From: Candidatus Nanopelagicales bacterium
GTDB lineage: Bacteria; Actinomycetota; Actinomycetes; S36-B12
DNA: 64,000 bases
Direction of reading: 5' to 3'
NCBI GenBank assembly: GCA_049315365.1
Contig: JBMOKH010000001.1
Location: 934-64,933 of the forward strand
Shown: in pieces, positions 52,575 to 63,940 of the stretch
Layout: the number at the start of each line of letters is the position of its first letter
Position numbering within the stretch: the stretch's first letter is position 1
Notes under the pieces: model-generated
The model's input: the letters and a program-made list of their open reading frames with translations, nothing else
Databases searched by the model: none
What the model was told of the DNA's origin: nothing
Translations under genes and position numbers: made by a program

Positions 52575-53579
52575 TCACCGATCGTGGCGGGTTACCTGAC
52601 CCATGATCAGGCCCTCGCGCAGCGCGTAGGCGGCGGCAGCAGCGCGGTTCGGCGCACTGAGCTTGGCGAGGATGTGCTCGACATGCGTTGCGACCGTGCG
52701 GTTACTGATGACAAGGGCGTCGCCGATCTCCTGATTCGATAACCCCTCCGCCGCGAGGGTGAGCACCTCGAGCTCGCGGCGACTGAGGGGCCCAATATCG
52801 ATCGAGTCCATGCTCACGACGGTCGTGATCGGTTGTTCGCCTCGACACGGCACGACGCGGACCCGAAACCAGTCATCGTCATCGGGCCAGACGAATGATC
52901 CCCACGAGTTATGCACAGCGGCCCCCTTGGCCACTTCAAGCAATTCAGTGCCATCCGCTAGGAGCTTGTGGCCGGTGAGCCCGGGGATGCTGATCGCGGC
53001 CCCGGCGTCATCCAAGCCGACGGCCATGCTCCCGGCACCCAGCAGCATGGCAATCCACTTGCCGGATTGGAGCGGGTCAGCGAGGTTCCCCAGGGTCGCG
53101 CACAGGTGGGCCACGGCATCCCGGGCAATGTCGCTCGGGTGTTCAGTAGACAGGGTTGAGAGGTTGATGACTCCCGTCACACGTCCGTCGGGGGTCCGAA
53201 GGCACATGGTGAGGCCCTCTTTGAAACCCGCCGGGTAGAGCACATCAGCGACGGCCCAGTTGTCCAGCGGGTCTCCTGGCAAATCACGCATGCGAATCGG
53301 TCGCCCAGTAGCTTTGATTCCGAGGGCGTCCATCAATTCGTGGAACTCAGCGCTGTGCAATTCATCGAGGATCTGCTGCGAGTAGCCCTCGGAAGCGATC
53401 TGGACCGACTCGCCGGTGAGGGGGTTGATGGAGCAGATCTCAGCGGCCTCGAAGGGAATGATCCGCTTGAGCTCCTCAAGGACAGCCCTGCCTCGCTCCG
53501 CTACTGGGCCACTGTCCGATGCGATTGCGGCAATCGTCCCCATCGCACCGATGGTGGAATCGACCTCGACGGCAGACAT
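52575..53579 (-). CDS. LuxR-family transcriptional regulator with N-terminal GAF-like sensor region
   Basis: C-terminal HTH 'LSRRELEVLTLAAEGLSNQEIGDALVISNRTVATHVEHILAKL'. ATG 53579 chosen. The upstream 72 codons of the track ORF are low-complexity and would cover the divergent promoter. Confidence 0.8.
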   Translation of the reverse strand: MSAVEVDSTIGAMGTIAAIASDSGPVAERGRAVLEELKRIIPFEAAEICSINPLTGESVQIASEGYSQQILDELHSAEFHELMDALGIKATGRPIRMRDLPGDPLDNWAVADVLYPAGFKEGLTMCLRTPDGRVTGVINLSTLSTEHPSDIARDAVAHLCATLGNLADPLQSGKWIAMLLGAGSMAVGLDDAGAAISIPGLTGHKLLADGTELLEVAKGAAVHNSWGSFVWPDDDDWFRVRVVPCRGEQPITTVVSMDSIDIGPLSRRELEVLTLAAEGLSNQEIGDALVISNRTVATHVEHILAKLSAPNRAAAAAYALREGLIMGQVTRHDR

Positions 53580-53789
53580 ACGCGCATCGTGACACCTCTG
53601 TCGTGCGTCTCGCAGCGGAACATGCACGATTCGATCGTTCGTAACCAAACAGATACACGACGGGCGCAACTCACCTCCCAAAACAGGAGAAGCAAATCGG
53701 TAGAAATACGGATAGCCGCGACGACTCGTTGTCGCAATCATGTGTCTACCCGGGCGTCTTCGTGCGCTCCGCCTAGAACTGGAGGCTCC

Positions 53790-55130
53790 ATGCAACGCGC
53801 TCGAATAACCACTCTCGCAGCCACGGTCGCGACCGCAACCCTGCTGCTCGCCGCGTGCGGCGGCGGCTCCGAGACAGCCACCGAGTCGGCTGCCCCCGCC
53901 GCCTCCGCGGCATCATCAGCGGCGCCCGCCGAAGGCGGCCCCGCCACGGGCGAGCCGATCGTGATCGGCATGCCGATCGCGCAGTCCGGTCCCGCCGGCA
54001 TCGCGGATCACAAGGATTGCTGGAACGGCGCGATCCTCGCCCAGGAGACGATCAACGCGAACGGCGGAGTGAATGGCCGTCCGATCGAGTTGGATGTCAC
54101 CGACATCGACATCCTCACCCCCGAGGGCATCACGGCTGGATTCCAGAAACTGACCGGTGATGGCGTGAGCGCGCTCGTCAGCCCGTTCGTCATCATTCCG
54201 CCCCCCGCGCTAGACGTTGCCGCCGCCTACGGTGCTCCGTACATGAGCGGTGACACGAATATTGACGCCCAGAACATCAGGGCAAGTGATCCGGCGAAGT
54301 ATGGCAACTATTTCGTGGACCCGGCCGAGACCTACTACGGCACCGGATTCGTCACCTTCCTGTCCCAGTTGAAGGATTCGGGCAAGTGGACCCCGAAGAA
54401 CAACAAGGTCGACATCATCCGTGGTGACACCGCCTACAACCAGAACATCGCTCAGGCGACGATCGATGCGATCGCCGCCACCGAGGGTGCATGGGAGCTT
54501 GGCGAGGTCATCGACATCACGGCCGGAACGAAGGACTGGTCGCCGGTCCTGCAGAAGCTCGCAGCGAACGATGCCGGAGCCATCATGGTCGACCACTGGA
54601 TCGGTGCTGAGCTCGCATCCTTCTCGCAGCAGTTTGCTGCCGCACCGGTTGATGGCTCGCTCGTCTACCTCCAGTACGGACCGTCACAGCCTGAGTACCT
54701 CGAGATCGCCGGTGACTCGGCCGAGGGCTTCGTCTGGGGAACCGTCATCGGAACCGGCAACACGAGCGCCGAGGACAAGGCATTCCGTGCGGCCTACCAG
54801 GCAAAGTTCGCCGTGGATGACAAGACCATGGGCCTTGTCTACCCGGCGTGGTGCTACGACATGGTGAACGTTCTGGCGAATGCCTGGGCGAATGCCGACC
54901 CGGCGGACTTTGCGGCGGTCAATGCGTACATCGCGGCGAACCCGACGAATGGCGTCACGGGCCACCTCGACTTCGCAAACGGCGCGGTGCCGATCTACCC
55001 GACGGTCGAGACCGATCCCGCAGCCGGTGTCACGCACTACTTCTACCAGGTCCAAGACGGTCGCCACACGGTGATCGCACCCGACATCGACGCGGAGGCA
55101 GCCTTTGCTCCCGCACCGTGGATGAAGTAG
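53790..55130 (+). CDS. ABC transporter substrate-binding lipoprotein, branched-chain amino acid/amide (LivJ/AmiC-like, Peripla_BP_6) family
   Basis: GGAGG lies 5 nt upstream of ATG 53790. Lipobox 'LLLAACGGG'. 'IVIGMPIAQSGPAG....AILAQETINANGGVNGRPIEL'. The first 150 codons of the track ORF overlap the LuxR gene and are rejected. Confidence 0.85.
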   Translation: MQRARITTLAATVATATLLLAACGGGSETATESAAPAASAASSAAPAEGGPATGEPIVIGMPIAQSGPAGIADHKDCWNGAILAQETINANGGVNGRPIELDVTDIDILTPEGITAGFQKLTGDGVSALVSPFVIIPPPALDVAAAYGAPYMSGDTNIDAQNIRASDPAKYGNYFVDPAETYYGTGFVTFLSQLKDSGKWTPKNNKVDIIRGDTAYNQNIAQATIDAIAATEGAWELGEVIDITAGTKDWSPVLQKLAANDAGAIMVDHWIGAELASFSQQFAAAPVDGSLVYLQYGPSQPEYLEIAGDSAEGFVWGTVIGTGNTSAEDKAFRAAYQAKFAVDDKTMGLVYPAWCYDMVNVLANAWANADPADFAAVNAYIAANPTNGVTGHLDFANGAVPIYPTVETDPAAGVTHYFYQVQDGRHTVIAPDIDAEAAFAPAPWMK

Positions 55131-55133
55131 TCG

Positions 55134-55892
55134 ATGCCACTCCTGTCCTGCACCGACATCACGCTTGACCTCGGTGGTCGGCGGATTCTCGAGAGCGTCA
55201 CGCTCGAGGTAGGCAGGGCAGAGGTTGTCGGTCTTGCCGGCCCCAATGGGGCCGGCAAGACCAGCCTCTTCGAAGTGCTGTCGGGCCGCCAACTCAACCA
55301 TGGCGGCGACGTCACCCTCGACGGGACTTCCATCAGGAAACTGCCGATGCGCGAGCGGGTTGAACGAGGCCTCGTGCGCAGCTACCAGAGGCCGATCGTG
55401 CCGGCCGCCCTCACGGTCGGCGAGACCCTCAAGGCCGCACGCAGGGCCTTCAAGCCCTACCCGTCACGCCTTCGCGTGGAGTGGGCCGCGGAGTTCGTGA
55501 GACTGCGCGCTCACATGGACCAGCCCACCGGATCACTCGAGACCCTAGAGCGCCGCAAGCTCATGCTGGCCTGCCTCCTCGTCCGCGATCCGCGGATCGT
55601 CCTGCTCGACGAACCCGCCTCAGGACTGACCGGCTCCGAGATCGATGAGATCGACCTCGTCGTTCGCAAACTCTCACAAGAGTTCGGAATTGCCGTCCTG
55701 CTCATCGAGCACCGACTCGAACTGCTCGCAATGGTCGCGTCGAGGGTGCTCGTTCTCGACGTCGGAACGATCATTGCCGAAGGCCCGCCCGAGACCGTGT
55801 TCACCCTCCCGGCAGTCCGGCAGGCCTACTTCGACATACCCATCATCGACGCTGAGAGCCTCGATTCATCAGGATTGAGCGTGGCGATCTGA
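55134..55892 (+). CDS. ABC transporter ATP-binding protein (LivG-like)
   Basis: Walker A 'GPNGAGKTSLF', signature-like 'LETLERRKL', Walker B 'IVLLDEPASGL'. Confidence 0.9.
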   Translation: MPLLSCTDITLDLGGRRILESVTLEVGRAEVVGLAGPNGAGKTSLFEVLSGRQLNHGGDVTLDGTSIRKLPMRERVERGLVRSYQRPIVPAALTVGETLKAARRAFKPYPSRLRVEWAAEFVRLRAHMDQPTGSLETLERRKLMLACLLVRDPRIVLLDEPASGLTGSEIDEIDLVVRKLSQEFGIAVLLIEHRLELLAMVASRVLVLDVGTIIAEGPPETVFTLPAVRQAYFDIPIIDAESLDSSGLSVAI

Positions 55893-56641
55893 TGGCGATT
55901 CTTGAACTTGTTCGGGTATCGGCCGGCTACGGGCCGGTGCGCGTTCTTCACGACCTCAATCTCTCAGTCAATCCCGGCGAGCGCCTTGGCTTGGTCGGTC
56001 TCAACGGCCATGGCAAGACGACGATGCTCAGCGCAATCGTCGGCCTGACCGGTTGGCAGGATGGCTCGATCATCTTCGAGGGCCACCAGATCGGTGGGCG
56101 CCGCACCCACGGGGTCGGACGCAAGACGCCCAGTATCGTCCGACGGGGCATAGCACTCGCTCCGCAGGGGGATGCGATCTTTCCAGGCCTGACCGTGAAA
56201 GAGAACCTGGATTCCGGGGCGTACACGCGGGCCACCTGGCGGTCCCGCCGGCGTCGACGTGATCACGTCCTTGACGTCTTCGCCCCCCTTCGCCCGCTCC
56301 TGCGTCAGTCAGCGGGGACGCTCTCGGGCGGCGAGAGGCGCATGGTCTCCGTCGGCCGGGCACTTATGGCCGACGCCAAGCTCTACCTCGTCGACGAGCC
56401 ATCGCTCGGACTTGCCCCGAAGATCTCCCTCGGTCTCGTCGCCGCGTTATGCGAGATCGACATCGGTGACGGCGCCATGATCATCGCGGAGCAGAACCTC
56501 CCACTGCTGCAGGGCCGGGTCGACCGGGTCCTTGGGATGCATGCGGGTGAGTTGAAGCAGGACGTGGGTGAAGCCCTCGGCGATATTCCGCCAGCCGCCG
56601 AGGCCATGGCCCAGGGCATCCACCACGGGCAGGCGCTCTGA
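55892..56641 (+). CDS. ABC transporter ATP-binding protein (LivF-like)
   Basis: Walker A 'GLNGHGKTT', signature 'LSGGERRMVSVGRAL', Walker B 'LYLVDEPSLGLAP'. ATGA overlaps at both ends. Confidence 0.9.
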   Translation: MAILELVRVSAGYGPVRVLHDLNLSVNPGERLGLVGLNGHGKTTMLSAIVGLTGWQDGSIIFEGHQIGGRRTHGVGRKTPSIVRRGIALAPQGDAIFPGLTVKENLDSGAYTRATWRSRRRRRDHVLDVFAPLRPLLRQSAGTLSGGERRMVSVGRALMADAKLYLVDEPSLGLAPKISLGLVAALCEIDIGDGAMIIAEQNLPLLQGRVDRVLGMHAGELKQDVGEALGDIPPAAEAMAQGIHHGQAL

Positions 56642-57531
56642 TGGATGTCGTCTTCAGTGCGCTCCTGCTCGCCTCGATGTATGGGCTTGTCGCGATCGGA
56701 ATCTCCTTCACGTGGGCCAGCATCGGCATGCTCAACCTGGCGCAAGGCTTCATCTTCACCGCAGGCGGCTATACGGCCTTTCTATTCGCAGAGATCGCCA
56801 CGACGTACGGGGTTGAAGGTGTTGCCCTGTCCGTCGGGCTCATCGTCTCCGGGATGCTGGGCTCGGCGGTGGCCGGACTTGCGGTCGGGCTGGTTGCCTT
56901 TCTGCCACTCCAGGACCGCGACAACTTTCGGACGAGAAGCCTCATCGCAACGCTTGCCATCAGTCTCATCGGGACGCAGGTCTGGCTCATCTTTTTCGGT
57001 CCGCAGAACAAGCCACTCCCGCCCATCTTCGGGACCGGGCGGGTCGAGGTCGCCGGCAGCGGAATCGGCAATGGGCAACTCGGTGCGATCATCGTGGCCA
57101 TTCTCATGCTTGGCGCGGTAATCCTCTGGATGCGGTCAAGCCGGGCCGGCCTTCAGATGCGGGCGATGATGATGAATCCTCTCGGGGCAGCCGTGGTCGG
57201 CGTCTCGGTGAGAACCACGGGCATGCGGGTCCTCGCGATCAGCGGAGCCCTTACCGGCCTTGCTTCAGTGCTGCTCGCACAGACCTTCTTCGTCAGCCCC
57301 ACTTCGGGAGTCCAGCCCCTCACGGTAGGTCTCATCATCTCGCTGGCCGGCGGGCTCGGTTCGATCCCCGGCACGGTCGTGGCCGCTGGGCTGCTCGGGC
57401 TCGCCGAGGCGCTCACGGCCCGGTACCTGCAGCAATCACTCGTACCGTTCGTGCTATTCGGGATCGTGGTGCTCATCCTCATCTTCCGCCCGCGCGGCCT
57501 CGGTGGACTGCTGGAGGATGTCCGTGAGTAA
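56641..57531 (+). CDS. Branched-chain-type ABC transporter permease (LivH-like)
   Basis: 296 aa, about 8 helices. 'LLASMYGLVAIGISFTWASIGMLNLAQG' is typical of HAAT-family permeases. Confidence 0.9.
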   Translation: MDVVFSALLLASMYGLVAIGISFTWASIGMLNLAQGFIFTAGGYTAFLFAEIATTYGVEGVALSVGLIVSGMLGSAVAGLAVGLVAFLPLQDRDNFRTRSLIATLAISLIGTQVWLIFFGPQNKPLPPIFGTGRVEVAGSGIGNGQLGAIIVAILMLGAVILWMRSSRAGLQMRAMMMNPLGAAVVGVSVRTTGMRVLAISGALTGLASVLLAQTFFVSPTSGVQPLTVGLIISLAGGLGSIPGTVVAAGLLGLAEALTARYLQQSLVPFVLFGIVVLILIFRPRGLGGLLEDVRE

Positions 57532-59047
57532 GCAACCCCTCATCGGCCGGCGCTCCTGGCGCCCGAGTTGGCCCGTCAGCACCGACAAGGTCTTCAAGCG
57601 CCGTCGCTACATCGGCACCAAGCGCTCGGTGCTGCGTCTCAGCGGGTCGTACAACCCGAAGACCCTCAAGCGTGAACTCGTCCTCACGGACAAAAAGCCG
57701 ACCTTCTGGCTCCTCGGGCTGATCCTTATTCTCGTCCTGCCCATCGCCGCGAGCAATGAGCGCTTCTTCGCGCTCTTCGGCATCATCTGCATCTACGCGG
57801 CGATCAACGTCATGTGGACCCTCATCATCGGAACCGCCGGACTCCAGTCCTTCGCCACCCTCGCCACCGTCGGCGTCGGCGCCTATGGCGCGGCGTACCT
57901 GAGCATCACCTACGGGGTCCCGTGGCCCGCCATGCTCGTCATCGGCTTGATCCTCGGCGCCCTCATGGGATTCCTCATCTCCCTGCCCGCCAGACGACTC
58001 GATGGCCTCTACTACGCGCTCTTAACCTTGGGCCTGTCCGAGTTCTGCCGGAACTTCGTCACGCAGTCCGATGAACTCGGCGGAAAGTTCAACGGGGCAC
58101 TTTTCGGGGTTGATCGAATCGTTCCCAGCGACATGATGACTACTTGGCTGGGGCAGGCACTGCTGTACGTGTCGGCCTTCGCCCTGCTCCTCGTAGCCCT
58201 CGCGGTCTTCCGGTGGGTCAACGGCGGGCGCCTTGGCCTGCTGCTGCGCACCTCGGCGACCAACAAGGAGGACGAGGCGTTCGCCTCGGCGATCGGCATC
58301 AATATCCAGCGCGCAAGAACCTGGGTGTTCATGATCGCCAGTGCGGCACTTGGAGCGATCGGTGCGTTCTACGCCGCGTACATCGGAGGAACATCGCTAC
58401 AGGTGTTCAGCCTCGACCTGCTACTCCTCATGCTCGCCATGATCGTCATCGGTGGACTCGGTCGTGCAGAGGGTGCGGTTATCGGAACGATCATCGTCGT
58501 TGGCATCACCCAGTGGTTCACGGAGTGGGGACCTTGGCGCATCGTGCTCGTCGGCGTCCTCGCACTCCTCTCCGTCCTCTACACCCGAAACGGCATCTTC
58601 GGGCTCAAGGTGCAACTGAGTGAGATTCGGCAGCGTCGGCAGGCACTCCATCGCGCCGGGCTGACGAGCAGGTACGCAGAGTTCCTGCCGCAGCAGGCCC
58701 CAGACATCCACGACAAGTCGATCATCGTGGGCCGGACATTCGAGCGCGGACTCCGAGACCGGCTGAGGGGATGGATCACGCCGGCGCTCATCGAGGAGCA
58801 CCGCCAAAAGCCCCTCGGCCAGCACAGCGATCACCTTGAGCGAATCCTCAACTACTTTAGGCAGGGGCCAATCCCTGATAAGTACGCCGTCTACTGCGAG
58901 GAACCATTCCGGTCGTACCGAGTGGTCGCGCTGTCCGGCATGCCAGGCGTTCCGCCGCGGGTGGTCGACGACAAGGTCTACCCCTCCCTGGACGAGGCCT
59001 ACCACGCGGTCTTCCTGCGGCGGGTCAATGATTTGCGAGCATCATGA
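57518..59047 (+). CDS. Branched-chain-type ABC permease (LivM-like) fused to a ~140-aa soluble C-terminal domain
   Basis: Basic N-terminal extension, then a LivM-like core ('IICIYAAINVMWTLIIGTAGLQSFA', 'YYALLTLGLSEF', 'IVIGGLGRAEGAVIGT'). From about nt 58616 an Arg-rich linker 'QLSEIRQRRQALHR' leads into a hydrophilic tail that ends 17 nt before the next gene. Start is ATG 57518 or GTG 57524. Confidence 0.85.
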   Translation: MSVSKQPLIGRRSWRPSWPVSTDKVFKRRRYIGTKRSVLRLSGSYNPKTLKRELVLTDKKPTFWLLGLILILVLPIAASNERFFALFGIICIYAAINVMWTLIIGTAGLQSFATLATVGVGAYGAAYLSITYGVPWPAMLVIGLILGALMGFLISLPARRLDGLYYALLTLGLSEFCRNFVTQSDELGGKFNGALFGVDRIVPSDMMTTWLGQALLYVSAFALLLVALAVFRWVNGGRLGLLLRTSATNKEDEAFASAIGINIQRARTWVFMIASAALGAIGAFYAAYIGGTSLQVFSLDLLLLMLAMIVIGGLGRAEGAVIGTIIVVGITQWFTEWGPWRIVLVGVLALLSVLYTRNGIFGLKVQLSEIRQRRQALHRAGLTSRYAEFLPQQAPDIHDKSIIVGRTFERGLRDRLRGWITPALIEEHRQKPLGQHSDHLERILNYFRQGPIPDKYAVYCEEPFRSYRVVALSGMPGVPPRVVDDKVYPSLDEAYHAVFLRRVNDLRAS

Positions 59048-59063: not shown

Positions 59064-61364
59064 ATGGCAACGACAACGATCACCGGCTACACCGACAAGG
59101 TGAGCGTCGCGCCGGGTGCGGAGATCACCTTCCACATCAGTGTCGAGAATGCCGAGTCGGCTCACGTCGAGATCGTCCGACTCATCCACGGTGATGAGCA
59201 CCCGGATGGCCCCGGCTTCATCGAGGAGGTCATCGCGAGCAGTGTCTCCGGTGATCATGCGGTGACGAAGCAGTTTGTCGATGTCGGCAATGCGATCGTC
59301 ATCGACGACCCAGCAGAGCGCCTCGCGCTCACCGGACCGATGACCCTCCACGCATATGTCTTTCCGACCACGCCGGCGAAGGGCCGTCAGGTACTACTCG
59401 GGCGCTTCTCGCTCACCGAGACCGCCGGGTATGCCCTCGGCATCAACGGCGAGGGACGCCTCACCTTCTGGGTCGGTGATGGCGTGGATACCGACGAGAT
59501 CACCTCGCAGGTACCCCTCATGCACCACACGTGGTACTTCGTGTCAGCCTCGTACGACCCCAAGTCGGGGAAGGCCCTCCTTCATCAGGAAGCGGTCGTC
59601 GGTCCGTACAACGGACGGCTCGGCAAGGTTGCGCCGTTCGATCACCGAAGCTCCGTCGAGCAAAAGCTGCGAATCAAGCCGAAGAGCGCGACCACGCCGT
59701 TCATGTGGGGTGCCGCGGCGAATTCAGCGCCGATTCGCGGGGCCTACAAGGACTTCGTATACAACGGGAAGATCGACCGGAGTGGGGTCTTCGACCGAGC
59801 GCTCACCCTCGACGAGATCAAGGCGGTCCATGCCGGGCAGCAGTTGAGTCCCGGGCCGCTGGCCTTCTGGGACACAGCCGAGGGCTACGGCCCGGATGGC
59901 ATCGACGACATCGTTCGCGATACGAGTCCGAGTGGCCTGAACGGGCGAGGTATCCAGCGGCCCGTCAGGGCAATGACGGGCTACAACTGGAGCGGTAAGC
60001 ATGATGACTGGCGGGTCGCTCCGGGCGAGTACGGGGCCATTGCCTTCCACGACGACGCCGTCGTTGACTGCGAGTGGGTGCCAACCCTGACGTGGACAGT
60101 TCCCGAGGGAACACGGAGCGGCGCCTACGCAGCACGGGTGACGATCGGTGACGTCGAGGATCACATCACCTTCTTTATCCGCCCGGCGAAGGCCACCGCC
60201 CCAATTCTGTATCTCATGCCGACGAACTCGTATCTCGCCTACGCCAACGAGATGATCGTCCACCACGTACCGGTCGGGCAGGCGATCCTCGCGCACCCCG
60301 CTGTGCTCACGGAGGCGGAGGCGGACTACTTCCAGGACCCCCGGTACGGACGGTCGACCTACGACCACCACTCCGACGGGGCAGGGGTGTGCTTCGCGTC
60401 ATGGAAGCGCCCGATCCTCAACATGCGCCCGAAATGGCGCTCATCAGCCATCGGGACGACCTGGCAGTTCCCCCGTGACCTCTCGCTCATCGCCTGGCTC
60501 GAGAGCCAGGGCTACGACTACGACGTGGCCACCGATCACGATCTCACCGAGCAGGGCATAGACCTCCTCAAGCAGTACTCAGTCGTGCTCACTGGATCGC
60601 ATCCTGAGTACTGGCACGAGGCCGGACTGAACGACCTCGAGGATTACATCGCCGAGGGCGGCCGACTCATGTACCTCGGCGGCAATGGCTTCTACTGGGT
60701 CATCTCGTATCGGGACGGCGAGCCGGAGTTGATGGAGGTCCGCAAGGGCGAGGCGGGGATGCGCGCTTGGCAGGCCGAGCCGGGCGAGTACTACCACCAG
60801 ACGTCCGCGGAGCGCGGCGGCATCTGGCGCAACAGGGCGAGGCCCCCACAGAAGCTCACCGGCGTGGGGTTCACGACACAGGGCTTCGATGAATGCCATC
60901 CCTATGTCCGGATGCCCGACAGCTACCACAAGTCGGTCGCATGGATCTTCGACGGCGTCGAGGGCGAGGTGTTCGGTGATTTCGGGCTGGCCCTCGGTGG
61001 AGCAGCCGGGCTGGAGACCGAGCGCTACGACCTTGAACTCGGGACGCCTCCGCATACGAAACTGCTCGCTTCATCGACGAGTTGGTCCGACAACTACGCA
61101 GGAGTCGTCGAGGACATCCTCTTCAATCACCCGGGCACCCTCGGGACGCAGAGCCCGACGGTGCGCGCAGACATGACGTACTTCACGACCGCGAACAACG
61201 GCGGAGTGTTCTCGACGGGGTCCATCGCATGGATGAGCGCGCTCCCCTGCTTCAACTACACGAACAACGTCTCTCAGATCATGAAGAACGTGCTCGACGC
61301 ATTCAGCAAGCCTGGCTCCCTCCCCGGAGGAGCTTGGGATCAAGAGGAGAAGTCGTGGACCTGA
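59064..61364 (+). CDS. N,N-dimethylformamidase large (beta) subunit family protein
   Basis: 766 aa. Blocks I recognise from DmfA2-type enzymes: 'VRLIHGDEHPDGPGF', 'NSYLAYANE', 'YDVATDHDLTEQG..LLKQYSVVLTGSHPEYW', 'ERYDLELGTPPHTKLLASS', 'VRADMTYFTTANNGGVFSTGSIAW', 'NNVSQIMKNVLDAF'. Recognition is from memory and is not database-verified. Confidence 0.85.
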   Translation: MATTTITGYTDKVSVAPGAEITFHISVENAESAHVEIVRLIHGDEHPDGPGFIEEVIASSVSGDHAVTKQFVDVGNAIVIDDPAERLALTGPMTLHAYVFPTTPAKGRQVLLGRFSLTETAGYALGINGEGRLTFWVGDGVDTDEITSQVPLMHHTWYFVSASYDPKSGKALLHQEAVVGPYNGRLGKVAPFDHRSSVEQKLRIKPKSATTPFMWGAAANSAPIRGAYKDFVYNGKIDRSGVFDRALTLDEIKAVHAGQQLSPGPLAFWDTAEGYGPDGIDDIVRDTSPSGLNGRGIQRPVRAMTGYNWSGKHDDWRVAPGEYGAIAFHDDAVVDCEWVPTLTWTVPEGTRSGAYAARVTIGDVEDHITFFIRPAKATAPILYLMPTNSYLAYANEMIVHHVPVGQAILAHPAVLTEAEADYFQDPRYGRSTYDHHSDGAGVCFASWKRPILNMRPKWRSSAIGTTWQFPRDLSLIAWLESQGYDYDVATDHDLTEQGIDLLKQYSVVLTGSHPEYWHEAGLNDLEDYIAEGGRLMYLGGNGFYWVISYRDGEPELMEVRKGEAGMRAWQAEPGEYYHQTSAERGGIWRNRARPPQKLTGVGFTTQGFDECHPYVRMPDSYHKSVAWIFDGVEGEVFGDFGLALGGAAGLETERYDLELGTPPHTKLLASSTSWSDNYAGVVEDILFNHPGTLGTQSPTVRADMTYFTTANNGGVFSTGSIAWMSALPCFNYTNNVSQIMKNVLDAFSKPGSLPGGAWDQEEKSWT

Positions 61365-61374
61365 GGGGAGCGAG

Positions 61375-62478
61375 ATGACGACGGGGTACGTCTGGCATGA
61401 GCTGTATGGCTGGCATGACACAGGCACGTATGCAGGCCTCCTGCCCGCAAGCCTGACGAGCCAGCCGTACCAGCACTTCGAGTCCCCCGAGTCCAAGCAG
61501 CGATTCCACTCCCTCGTCGAGGTCTCCGGGCTGGCACAGCACCTCACGCGGATCATTCCCGAGCCGGCGACGGATGACGACATCCTGCGCATCCACACTG
61601 CTGAGCACCTTGAGCGGATCAAGGCCGAGAGCGCCCAGCCCAAGGGCGGTGATGCCGGCGATGGCACATCACCGTTCGGCCACCAGGGGTTCGAGATCGC
61701 GGCCCTTGCGGCCGGCGGGTCGATCGCCGCCCTCAATGCGGTGCTCGACGGGACTGTCGACAACGCCTACGCACTCGTTCGCCCGCCCGGGCACCACGCC
61801 CGACCGGAAACTGGCATGGGGTTTTGCATCTTCGCCAACGCCGGTATCGCTATCAGGCACGCTCAGGCGGCAAACCCCGCCCTGCGGGTCGCAACGGTCG
61901 ACTGGGACGTCCATCACGGCAATGGCACGCAGGCCGCCTTTGTGTCTGATCCGAGCGTGCTCACGATCTCCCTCCACCAGGACGACCTCTTCCCGCGGGG
62001 CAGCGGAAGGGTGAGCGAACGCGGCGAGGGTGCCGGTGACGGCTACGCCATCAACGTTCCACTGCCGGCCGGCACCGGAAACGGCGGATACCTCCATGCG
62101 ATGCGCGAGGTGGTCGTGCCGGCGATTCGTCGATTCAAGCCGGACGTCATCGTGGTGCCCTCTGGTTTCGACGCGAGCTGCTTTGATCCGCTCGGCCGGA
62201 TGTCGGTGACAGCCTCGGGCTACCGCGCGATGACGAGGGTGCTCATGGACATCGCGGAGGAGGTCTGCTCGGGTCGCATCATGATGACGCACGAGGGCGG
62301 CTACTCGCCGACCTATGTGCCGCTGTGCGGGGTCTCCGTGCTGTCGGAGATGTCCGGGGTGGATGTGGACGTTGTTTCGGAGATCTACGCCGGCTTCGAC
62401 ACGATGCCTGGGCACGCCCTCATGCCATGGCAGATTGACGTGGTGCAGACCGCTCGGCAGGAGCACGGTCTCATCTAG
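61375..62478 (+). CDS. Histone-deacetylase-fold amidohydrolase (acetylpolyamine amidohydrolase / class II HDAC-like)
   Basis: 'RPPGHHA', 'DWDVHHGNGTQ', 'SGFDAS', 'HEGGYS'. GAGGGGAG lies 5 nt upstream of the ATG. Confidence 0.9.
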   Translation: MTTGYVWHELYGWHDTGTYAGLLPASLTSQPYQHFESPESKQRFHSLVEVSGLAQHLTRIIPEPATDDDILRIHTAEHLERIKAESAQPKGGDAGDGTSPFGHQGFEIAALAAGGSIAALNAVLDGTVDNAYALVRPPGHHARPETGMGFCIFANAGIAIRHAQAANPALRVATVDWDVHHGNGTQAAFVSDPSVLTISLHQDDLFPRGSGRVSERGEGAGDGYAINVPLPAGTGNGGYLHAMREVVVPAIRRFKPDVIVVPSGFDASCFDPLGRMSVTASGYRAMTRVLMDIAEEVCSGRIMMTHEGGYSPTYVPLCGVSVLSEMSGVDVDVVSEIYAGFDTMPGHALMPWQIDVVQTARQEHGLI

Positions 62479-62547: not shown

Positions 62548-63066
62548 ATGACCACTACTGCGACTCTGCATACCACCCTGGGCGACATCAAGATCAACCT
62601 CTTCGAGGATCAGGCCCCCAAGACTGTCCGCAACTTCACCGGGCTGGCCGATGGCAGTCAGGAGTGGACGAATCCCAAGTCCAATGCGAAGAGCAGTGAG
62701 CCGCTGTACGACGGCACGATCTTCCACCGCGTCATCTCCGGATTCATGATCCAGGGCGGCGATCCCCTCGGCACCGGCACCGGTGGCCCGGGGTACAAGT
62801 TCGATGACGAGTTCCATGGTGAACTCAACTTCGATCGGCCGTACCTGCTCGCCATGGCGAACTCAGGGCCGAAGACGAACGGCTCACAGTTCTTCATCAC
62901 CGTGACACCGACCCCCCATCTCAACCGCAAGCACACGATCTTCGGCGAGGTCGCCGACCAGGAGTCACGCGATGTCGTCGATGCGATCGCGACCGTCGCC
63001 ACGGGCGCCCAGGATCGTCCGAAGGAGAACGTCGTCATCAACTCGGTGACGATCACGCGCGACTAG
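62548..63066 (+). CDS. ppiA: Peptidyl-prolyl cis-trans isomerase, cyclophilin type
   Basis: 'FHRVISGFMIQGGDP', 'GGPGYKFDDEF', 'LAMANSGPKTNGSQFFIT', 'HTIFGEV'. Confidence 0.95.
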   Translation: MTTTATLHTTLGDIKINLFEDQAPKTVRNFTGLADGSQEWTNPKSNAKSSEPLYDGTIFHRVISGFMIQGGDPLGTGTGGPGYKFDDEFHGELNFDRPYLLAMANSGPKTNGSQFFITVTPTPHLNRKHTIFGEVADQESRDVVDAIATVATGAQDRPKENVVINSVTITRD

Positions 63067-63073
63067 CAGTCCA

Positions 63074-63940
63074 GTGACCGATCAGCCAGATGCCGTAGCG
63101 CCGGTGTGCTACCGGCACCCGGATCGGGTCAGTTACATCACCTGCACCCGGTGCGGCCGGCCGGTTTGCCCTGACTGCATGGTGGCTGCGCCGGTCGGCT
63201 TTCAATGCCGGGAGTGCGTGGCTGGGGCGGCGAGTGAGAGGGTCACCCCGACCACTGTCGCGGGCGGGCAGTACATCTCGAAGCCGCGTGTGACCTACGC
63301 CCTCATCGGGCTCAACCTCACGCTGTTCCTCCTGCAGTACCTAGGCGGGATCAATGAGGTTGCCGGCGACTGGGGGATGTGGCCGGTCGGGATCGCTGTC
63401 GGGGGCGAGTGGTGGCGGCTTCTCACCGGCGCGTTCCTACACGGTTCGTTCCTGCATATCGCCTTCAACATGTACGTGCTGTTCGCCCTTGGCCCGACCC
63501 TCGAGCGCGTCCTCGGCCATGGCCGGTATCTCATGCTCTACGTCCTCGCCGCCCTGGGCGGCGGCGTCGCGTCCTATGCCTTCTCCGATATGCGCACGGT
63601 CTCGGTGGGGGCGAGTGGCGCAATCTTCGGCCTCATGGGGGCACTCATCATCGCCGGCCGCAGGCTTCGGTACGACATCAAGCAGGTGGTCATCCTGCTC
63701 GGCATCAACGTGGTGATCGGCTTCCTGGCGCCCGGTGTCGACTGGCGCGCGCACCTCGGTGGGCTGGTCATCGGGGCCGCGGTGGCGTCCGTGTTCGTCT
63801 ATGCGCCACGAGCCCACCGGAACCTGTGGCAGACACTCGGCGTACTCGGCATCCTCGGGGTGCTCATCGTCGCCACCACCTGGCGAACCGCCCAGATAAT
63901 GGAGTTCGTCGCGCCCTTCGGCGTGACGCTCAACGCCTGA
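63074..63940 (+). CDS. Rhomboid-family intramembrane serine protease with N-terminal zinc-ribbon
   Basis: 'CYRHP....CTRCGRPVCPDC' ribbon, 'WWRLLTGAFLHGSFLHIAFNM', catalytic 'GASGAIFGLMG' and a downstream 'AHLGG' His. Confidence 0.9.
   Translation: MTDQPDAVAPVCYRHPDRVSYITCTRCGRPVCPDCMVAAPVGFQCRECVAGAASERVTPTTVAGGQYISKPRVTYALIGLNLTLFLLQYLGGINEVAGDWGMWPVGIAVGGEWWRLLTGAFLHGSFLHIAFNMYVLFALGPTLERVLGHGRYLMLYVLAALGGGVASYAFSDMRTVSVGASGAIFGLMGALIIAGRRLRYDIKQVVILLGINVVIGFLAPGVDWRAHLGGLVIGAAVASVFVYAPRAHRNLWQTLGVLGILGVLIVATTWRTAQIMEFVAPFGVTLNA

Follow-up and report, generated by a model that had tools for sequence, protein, structure and literature searches.

A 64,000-nucleotide stretch of DNA from a Candidatus Nanopelagicales bacterium (GenBank assembly GCA_049315365.1, contig JBMOKH010000001.1, positions 934 to 64,933; this whole 64-kb stretch is referred to here as the window) raises the question of why an ATP-binding cassette (ABC) permease of the LivM type should continue, after its last membrane helix, into a soluble tail, and whether this tail is the subunit that appears to be missing from the enzyme encoded immediately downstream. 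That enzyme is a homologue of the large (beta) subunit of N,N-dimethylformamidase (DMFase), so far regarded as an oddity, which acts on a man-made solvent and whose small (alpha) subunit has been called a new fold of unknown evolutionary origin (PMC7686228). A prediction made from the DNA letters of the window had proposed that the tail is the equivalent of the small subunit. Here we describe the fused protein, LivM::alpha, its conservation across bacterial genomes and the importer-tethered amidase to which it probably belongs.

Results

The permease tail and the DMFase small subunit

The LivM::alpha frame lies on the + strand and is open from a GTG at 57503 (514 aa) to the stop at 59047, while homologues of the protein (P0066) begin at the ATG at 57518 (MSVSKQP...), which yields a form of 509 aa; residues 372-514 of the original prediction are in the numbering that starts from the GTG. 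The last hydrophobic helix of the permease ends in ...LLSVLYTRNGIFGLKV and is followed by about 143 hydrophilic residues (24 K/R and 18 D/E), and the soluble tail of some 140 residues that had been proposed is thus indeed present. The open reading frame (ORF), the peptides quoted from it and the neighbouring genes are likewise where they had been placed.

Within this tail the DMFase small-subunit domain (Pfam DMF_alpha) comprises aa 383-509 plus the stop codon (58664..59047, + strand). A sequence search of the PDB (177,635 sequences) aligned tail residues 56-142 to residues 42-129 of 6LVB_B, the small subunit of the Paracoccus sp. DMF enzyme, with an E value of 2.6e-13 and 40% identity over 85 aligned residues. 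A model of the full-length protein of 509 aa, computed with AlphaFold2 from 53 fused homologues, has a mean predicted local distance difference test score (pLDDT) of 80.6, the alpha domain lying mostly at 84-93. The fold expected of alpha, in which a long helix at each terminus accompanies two shorter ones and a small beta-sheet, is found in the modelled domain (H400-419, H422-430, H438-449, three strands and H491-508). When the model was compared with known structures by Foldseek, the three top PDB fold matches were 6LVB_B, 6LVV_B and 6LVD_B; for 6LVB_B the template modelling (TM) score, normalised to the target, is 0.82. With 127 columns for a chain of 124 residues, this match spans all of the solved structure and takes in the N-terminal helix, which had escaped the sequence alignment. 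The nearly invariant residues of the family (E61, G68, H70, S71, L74, L78, A128, F133 and R136 in tail numbering) are all present in the tail, as are the family motifs EEH...G.HS..L..L and A.H..F..R, and a family hidden Markov model (HMM) built from 29 alpha members matches the tail with an E value of 8.6e-51. Precomputed Pfam annotations place PF26354, “DMF_alpha”, on all database relatives of the tail. Local Pfam and NCBIfam scans of the window returned no match for the tail; the missing Pfam match is explained by the local Pfam copy, which does not contain PF26354. By sequence and by predicted fold, the tail is a complete copy of the DMFase-family small subunit, as the original prediction had suspected.

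It had also been claimed that the cluster has no free-standing small-subunit gene. This was borne out when the alpha HMM was run against all six-frame ORFs in the window: no second alpha copy was detected, LivM::alpha being the sole match. The stop codon of the fused gene (TGA, 59045-59047) is separated from the ATG of beta at 59064 by a spacer that contains GGAG. The fused gene does lie close upstream of the 766-aa ORF, as had been stated, but the spacer is 16 nt and not 17 nt long.

The 766-aa protein (59064..61364, + strand) is a DMFase large-subunit homologue, in agreement with its earlier assignment. It contains the domains DMFA2_C (PF20254; E 4.1e-98) and Laminin_G_3, and aligns with 6LVB_A over 746 residues at 44% identity (E 2.6e-198). 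In the Paracoccus enzyme the iron is held by Tyr399, Tyr440 and Glu521, and His519 and Asn547 are essential (PMC7686228). Residues identical to Y399, Y440, E521, H519, N547 and, in the substrate pocket, F693 of 6LVB_A are aligned in beta, and the mononuclear-iron 2-Tyr-1-Glu site is, to judge from this alignment, intact. A more distant relative of beta is the N-acetyl-(R)-beta-phenylalanine acylase 8HUY (E 5.4e-113).

The membrane part of LivM::alpha and its connection to the tail

The membrane part of the fusion (57518..58603, + strand) is a LivM/UrtC-like permease. Pfam BPD_transp_2 (PF02653) matches aa 94-354 of the 514-aa form (E 9.1e-22), about ten transmembrane helices are predicted at aa 60-355 and are seen as helices in the AlphaFold model, and there are weak matches to the NCBIfam models of LivM and UrtC. 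The scores are far below the cutoffs of these models (67.1 bits against 366 for LivM, NF008450, and 54 bits against 296.2 for UrtC, TIGR03408), and at the level of sequence the permease is a relative of LivM and UrtC that is a member of neither equivalog. Thus, its substrate should not be taken to be branched-chain amino acids or urea. The protein does, however, follow the pattern of HAAT-type importers, in that it contains BPD_transp_2 and its operon also encodes another BPD_transp_2 permease, a pair of ATPases and a binding protein of the Peripla_BP_6 type. Searched by sequence against the PDB, the membrane domain gave no match, and Foldseek detected a weak fold similarity to the type II ABC importer permeases BtuC, HmuU and PsaC.

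A basic linker helix (aa 363-382, QLSEIRQRRQALHRAGLTSR; 58604..58663, + strand) connects the alpha domain to the last transmembrane helix, and along it the pLDDT of the AlphaFold model drops from about 71 to 54. When conservation was scored among the 53 fused homologues, Q366 and R371 of this linker proved to be invariant, and R379 and A380 nearly so. From the last transmembrane helix to the first helix of alpha the connector, which consists of the basic helix 363-382 and a low-confidence segment, is about 40 residues long and appears to be of sufficient length for the enzyme to sit beside the ATPases. The prediction also puts the end of the tail in the cytoplasm: the coupling helices on the cytoplasmic side are followed by four more helices, the fold is similar to that of a type II importer with ten transmembrane segments and the termini are rich in Arg and Lys. 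The C-terminus of LivM::alpha is thus predicted to be cytoplasmic, the location on which the idea of a tethered hydrolase had been built.

At the other end, LivM::alpha has an Arg-rich, cytoplasmic N-terminal extension (aa 1-58, 57518-57691) with 15 K/R against 3 D/E. The clade of fused LivM proteins shares this extension, GRR..R.R...YNPKTL.RE...DKKP, in which several residues are invariant; a beta-hairpin is predicted at aa 41-56, with low model confidence (pLDDT 46-67). The extension might be another site at which the enzyme or the ATPases make contact.

Conservation of the fusion

The fusion was surveyed in one genome per species, using an alignment of 11 closer sequences as the query. Relatives were found in 269 genomes, from which the best 80 loci were kept; these are biased toward fused-type tails and do not represent a census of fused versus free forms. 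The LivM membrane domain and the tail are in one continuous frame in 77 of the 80 loci, one being split and two being cut by contig ends and therefore uninformative, and the fusion is accordingly present in at least 77 bacterial species. The same continuous frame occurs in more than 100 metagenome protein clusters, and the best 120 full-length homologues (49-96% identity) all contain both PF02653 and PF26354, those that are not fragments at contig edges being about 505-560 aa long. The fusion is conserved and is not accidental.

The genes around the fusion are conserved with it. A beta homologue, read from its first residue, lies about 5-430 nt 3' of the tail in all 80 loci, and alpha therefore stands directly upstream of the large-subunit gene throughout, as it does in the window. 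A tail of this kind on a LivM protein with no DMFase-like neighbour, an observation that would have spoken against the original proposal, was not encountered among these 80 loci. Where upstream sequence exists, the substrate-binding protein (SBP; 59/59), the ATPase (66/66) and LivH (73/73) are present in the same order, and the conserved module reads SBP, two ATPases, LivH, LivM::alpha and beta. The hosts among the 80 loci include Candidatus Nanopelagicales, other Actinomycetota, Burkholderiales, Rhodocyclaceae, Bradyrhizobium, Rhodopseudomonas, Hoeflea, Gemmobacter, Paracoccaceae and Taklimakanibacter. The nearest relative of the window is a Nanopelagicales metagenome-assembled genome (MAG; L013) of a freshwater lineage, the cluster proteins of which are 92-97% identical.

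Free, split and otherwise fused forms of alpha

In a wider set of 1.84 billion 50%-identity representatives the alpha domain was detected in 312 (E <= 1e-3), mostly as free-standing proteins of 110-135 aa, and three loci (L010, L093 and L095) carry free alpha and beta pairs without a transporter. In a neighbour-joining tree of the alpha domain (120 columns), which is poorly resolved, the fused tails and 38 short “free” calls form one clade and 6LVB_B falls outside it.

The sole split version among the 80 genomes is that of Bradyrhizobium betae P42 (L078:8880-9060; also L008/L009). Relative to its fused relatives it has a 1-nt deletion in a G run (GAAAAAGGGGTGAGGTGATG), as a result of which the TGA of LivM overlaps the ATG of a 122-aa alpha gene. 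Two assemblies show the split, which may have arisen by recent fission or may reflect a sequencing error in the homopolymer. Two further kinds of candidate for separate alpha proteins were considered. P0001 (145 aa, 93% identical to the tail), which was at first taken to be a free-standing alpha, is a gene-calling artefact generated by a run of N inside LivM, the same frame being open on both sides. Free proteins of 121-122 aa that begin with MPEEA... were considered as a sign of frequent splitting; the one case in a complete genome, B. betae, is the 1-nt deletion described above, the assembly of L012 is full of broken genes and most of the other calls sit on contigs of less than 2.5 kb.

Alpha is also found joined to another partner. 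In P0264 (891 aa), a metagenome representative, alpha and its own large subunit form a single-chain alpha::beta protein, with alpha at the N-terminal end, and thus alpha tolerates fusion at its C-terminus too. Fusion is tolerated at both ends of alpha, to judge from this single chain and from the split LivM and alpha pair with its overlapping stop and start.

A further locus (L094, 221-10752; Logan SRR12821960_186) encodes LivM::alpha (551 aa) and beta (777 aa), followed by a free 120-aa alpha and a second beta (773 aa). Here a tethered and an untethered enzyme pair stand in tandem in one operon.

The operon and its flanks

The remaining components of the importer are encoded upstream of LivM::alpha on the + strand. 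The substrate-binding lipoprotein (446 aa, 53790..55130) has Pfam Peripla_BP_6 and the lipobox LLLAAC, and its best PDB match is 3H5L (E 2.4e-47). The mechanical ORF begins at a GTG at 53340 (596 aa; 53340-55130), whereas a reading from 53790 opens with MQRARITTLAATVATATLLLAACGGG. The ATG at 53790 is almost certainly the true start, since it yields a lipoprotein signal peptide, MQRARITTLAATVATATLLLAAC, and since the gene calls in relatives are 446-448 aa long. Two ABC ATPases follow, one LivG-like (55134..55892; ABC_tran E 4e-20) and one LivF-like (55892..56641; ABC_tran E 1.6e-27), the latter occupying the same position in relatives, and then the 296-aa LivH-like permease (56641..57531; BPD_transp_2 E 2.2e-26). 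Divergent from the operon is a regulator of the LuxR family (GerE helix-turn-helix; 52575..53795, - strand; GerE E 7.6e-19), the exact start of which is uncertain; a LuxR-type regulator is kept upstream in the actinobacterial relatives. The DMFase genes of Paracoccus aminophilus are activated by DmfR, also of the LuxR family (PMC4543880).

Downstream, a histone deacetylase (HDAC)-like amidohydrolase (367 aa; 61375..62478, + strand; Hist_deacetyl E 2.2e-87) begins 10 nt after beta. Its closest match is the histone deacetylase-like amidohydrolase (HDAH) of Alcaligenes FB188 (PDB 1ZZ0, E 1.5e-112), and hydrolases of propanil and dimethoate are among its relatives in the PDB. The gene, which belongs specifically to the actinobacterial form of the cluster, is present in 28 of the 64 loci with enough downstream sequence, being directly downstream only in those of the Nanopelagicales type and about 2 kb further on in three others. 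The protein may be a second amidase that acts on the same or a related imported compound.

The cluster is flanked on its 3' side by peptidyl-prolyl isomerase and rhomboid genes (62548-63940). In two relatives (L001 and L004) the flanks carry CrgA, GATase and a PknB-like kinase with PASTA domains, and in L004 gyrB and gyrA lie just upstream of the cluster. The flanks are a conserved actinobacterial region near cell-division and oriC-proximal genes.

Discussion

An amidase probably tethered to its own importer

The fusion of an importer subunit to an enzyme subunit suggests that import and hydrolysis occur at the same place. In the Paracoccus DMFase the purified large subunit shows no activity by itself and is less stable, a helix at the N-terminus of the small subunit is wedged into the interface of two large subunits, and both kinds of subunit contribute to the entrance of the active site (PMC7686228). 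Since beta needs alpha for activity in that enzyme, and the only alpha in the window is the tail, beta would be expected to dock on the tail of the permease. By analogy with this enzyme, we consider it likely that the amidase is anchored to the inner face of its own importer through LivM::alpha. A single polypeptide combines a LivM-type membrane subunit, by way of a basic linker helix, with an alpha predicted to be cytoplasmic, on which beta would dock as it does on free alpha. The active amidase would then exist solely at the cytoplasmic face of the importer, where an imported small N-substituted amide could be hydrolysed on arrival at the cytoplasmic exit. As the soluble enzyme is an alpha2beta2 assembly and a transporter contains a single LivM, a beta dimer would be expected to bridge two transporters. 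In this scheme it is the docking of beta, the stoichiometry, the channelling and the substrate that we infer, whereas the analysis supports the original prediction in homology and predicted fold of the tail, in the conservation of fusion, operon and catalytic residues, and in the predicted cytoplasmic topology.

Several considerations weigh against such an arrangement. The docking of beta on a tethered alpha is argued by analogy with an enzyme that is 40-44% identical. The enzyme needs two alphas per beta dimer and the transporter gives one, so that both alpha N-termini must face one membrane plane. The ATPase dimer fills the space under the permease, and the enzyme must therefore sit beside it, at the end of a linker whose pLDDT is about 54-71. 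Free alpha and beta pairs without a transporter exist, which indicates that tethering is not essential to the enzyme family. It could also be argued that hydrolysis is merely co-localised with import, the two being without mechanistic coupling.

The substrate of a tethered amidase need not be dimethylformamide (DMF), which DMFase hydrolyses to dimethylamine and formate, given that the identity to the DMFase is 44% for beta and 40% for alpha and that a distant relative is an N-acetyl-beta-phenylalanine acylase; a small N-substituted amide is a reasonable guess. Dozens of species, belonging to at least two phyla, have the small subunit built into an ABC importer; Nanopelagicales MAGs are among them, and several of these MAGs come from lakes. 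This speaks for a natural amide substrate. In one proteobacterial locus (L007; 162-6018 and 18268-20706) the module adjoins a methylamine dehydrogenase (mau) cluster that comprises Me-amine-dh_H and _L, MauE, cytochromes c and a MauG-like peroxidase, which hints at methylamine as a product of the hydrolysis in that locus. A further hint comes from the HDAC-like amidase of the actinobacterial clusters, with its propanil- and dimethoate-hydrolysing relatives.

True substrate channelling from the importer into the enzyme is plausible, although we would regard it as the less probable outcome. A more ambitious proposal, put forward here tentatively and with the odds against it, is that of a (SBP-LivFGH-LivM::alpha)2-beta2 supercomplex in which the active-site entrance faces the translocation exit, such that import and hydrolysis would form one vectorial step resembling group translocation and the whole would be a transport metabolon. 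The soluble, xenobiotic-degrading DMFase might then be an untethered offshoot of an ancient and widespread family that scavenges natural N-substituted amides and is prominent in abundant freshwater Nanopelagicales.

Alternatives to tethering

The simplest way to dispose of the fusion would be to regard it as an assembly or sequencing artefact, in which a lost stop or a frameshift has joined two genes, and the original prediction had itself named this danger. A close relative seemed to have a separate 145-aa alpha and B. betae does have a split version. The former, however, is the gene-calling artefact P0001, and the latter is the exception and itself a 1-nt deletion in a G run, while one frame is retained in 77 of the 78 informative genomes, which come from independent projects, and in the metagenome clusters. 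An artefact is therefore extremely improbable and this explanation is effectively refuted. It could be argued instead that the fused gene is real but that alpha acts as a free subunit, produced from an internal start or by proteolysis, in an ordinary soluble alpha2beta2 enzyme, and that the fusion merely ensures co-expression. Indeed many proteobacterial fused proteins have a Met or Val exactly at the domain boundary (...GGEVMPEEATEI...), and in B. betae the boundary Met becomes the start of the separate 122-aa alpha once the single nucleotide is deleted. Several MPEEA calls of 120-122 aa lie inside the fused clade, albeit in a rough tree, and L094 has a free alpha and beta pair beside the fused one. 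It should be emphasized, however, that the boundary sequence of the window and of its actinobacterial relatives, ...EFLPQQAPDI..., offers no in-frame ATG, GTG or TTG; the sole in-frame candidate, the GTG at 58610, is not conserved, being replaced by S, E or M in relatives. A linker helix with invariant Q366 and R371 would be unexpected in a stretch that is discarded, and the fusion has been kept down to 49% identity across phyla. We thus consider release of a free alpha to be unlikely.

A different role for the tail would be a regulatory one, in which beta, either by itself or carrying substrate or product, binds the tail and gates the transporter in a form of trans-inhibition in place of any channelling. 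The conserved basic linker helix beside the last transmembrane helix could pass on conformational changes, and C-terminal cytoplasmic regulatory domains on ABC importers do exist, as in MetN (the C2 domain), ModC and MalK. These known domains, however, sit on the ATPase and not on the permease. The tail is, moreover, a full structural subunit of an enzyme that needs alpha for activity, and its sequence bears no sign of a ligand-binding site. Such regulation is compatible with tethering, from which it differs in consequence alone, and as a replacement for channelling it appears improbable. An amidase held at the membrane by LivM::alpha is the interpretation that we favour.

Significance

What appears to be new here is that a known two-subunit enzyme and a known type of importer are joined, which implies a hard-wired transporter-enzyme complex. 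To our knowledge, it is very unusual for the permease of an ABC importer to be linked covalently to a subunit of the cargo-consuming enzyme, and the cluster is a natural test case for the direct channelling of imported substrates into catabolic enzymes. The pairing of PF02653 with PF26354 is already present in precomputed Pfam annotations, and the source records give the proteins no other name than “branched-chain amino acid ABC transporter permease”. No description of a fusion between a permease and this small subunit was found in the searchable full-text literature, most subscription journals lying outside the search, and the architecture is apparently undescribed. There is also a consequence for annotation, as genomes with the cluster appear to be without a small subunit, and surveys of DMFases in which a separate gene for the small subunit is a requirement may overlook or misinterpret them.

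Comparison with known systems

The closest known system is the DMFase of Paracoccus sp. DMF (DmfA1/DmfA2; 6LVB; Arya et al. 2020, PMC7686228). The cluster in the window shares with it the fold and sequence family of alpha, a large subunit with the Tyr-Tyr-Glu ligands and the counterparts of His519, Asn547 and Phe693, the gene order alpha then beta and, as with dmfR of P. aminophilus, a LuxR-type regulator nearby (PMC4543880). In Paracoccus, however, the small subunit is a free 132-aa protein, the enzyme is a soluble alpha2beta2 or (alpha2beta2)2 assembly and no transporter is described with its genes in PMC7686228 or PMC4543880. In the window, by contrast, alpha forms the C-terminal domain of a permease that is encoded in a six-gene operon for an ABC importer.

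A genetic link between amide import and amide hydrolysis is familiar from other importers. Liv/Urt/Fmd-type (HAAT) systems for urea and short-chain amides, such as FmdDEF and UrtABCDE, are encoded beside urease or formamidase genes. They resemble the present cluster in having an SBP, two BPD_transp_2 permeases and two ATPases, and in their association with an amide-hydrolysing enzyme. In the HAAT urea and amide systems that we know of, transporter and hydrolase are separate proteins, whereas in the window one of the enzyme subunits is covalently built into the permease.

Among enzymes of the family, the single-chain alpha::beta proteins of the P0264 type also have alpha fused to another polypeptide. 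They would be soluble, with alpha on the N-terminus of beta, whereas here it is the N-terminus of alpha that is joined to a membrane protein. The acylase 8HUY belongs to the same large-subunit family, which thus acts on amides beyond DMF. It is, however, much more distant than the DMFase, its PDB entry lists the large chain alone with no small subunit evident, and we know of no transporter linked to it.

Extra cytoplasmic domains on components of ABC importers are well established in MetNI, ModBC and MalFGK2, where they reside on the ATPase and bind small-molecule effectors or regulators. LivM::alpha resembles these systems in carrying such a domain on an importer component. It differs from them in that the extra domain is on the permease and, as far as sequence and modelled structure indicate, is a structural subunit of an enzyme.

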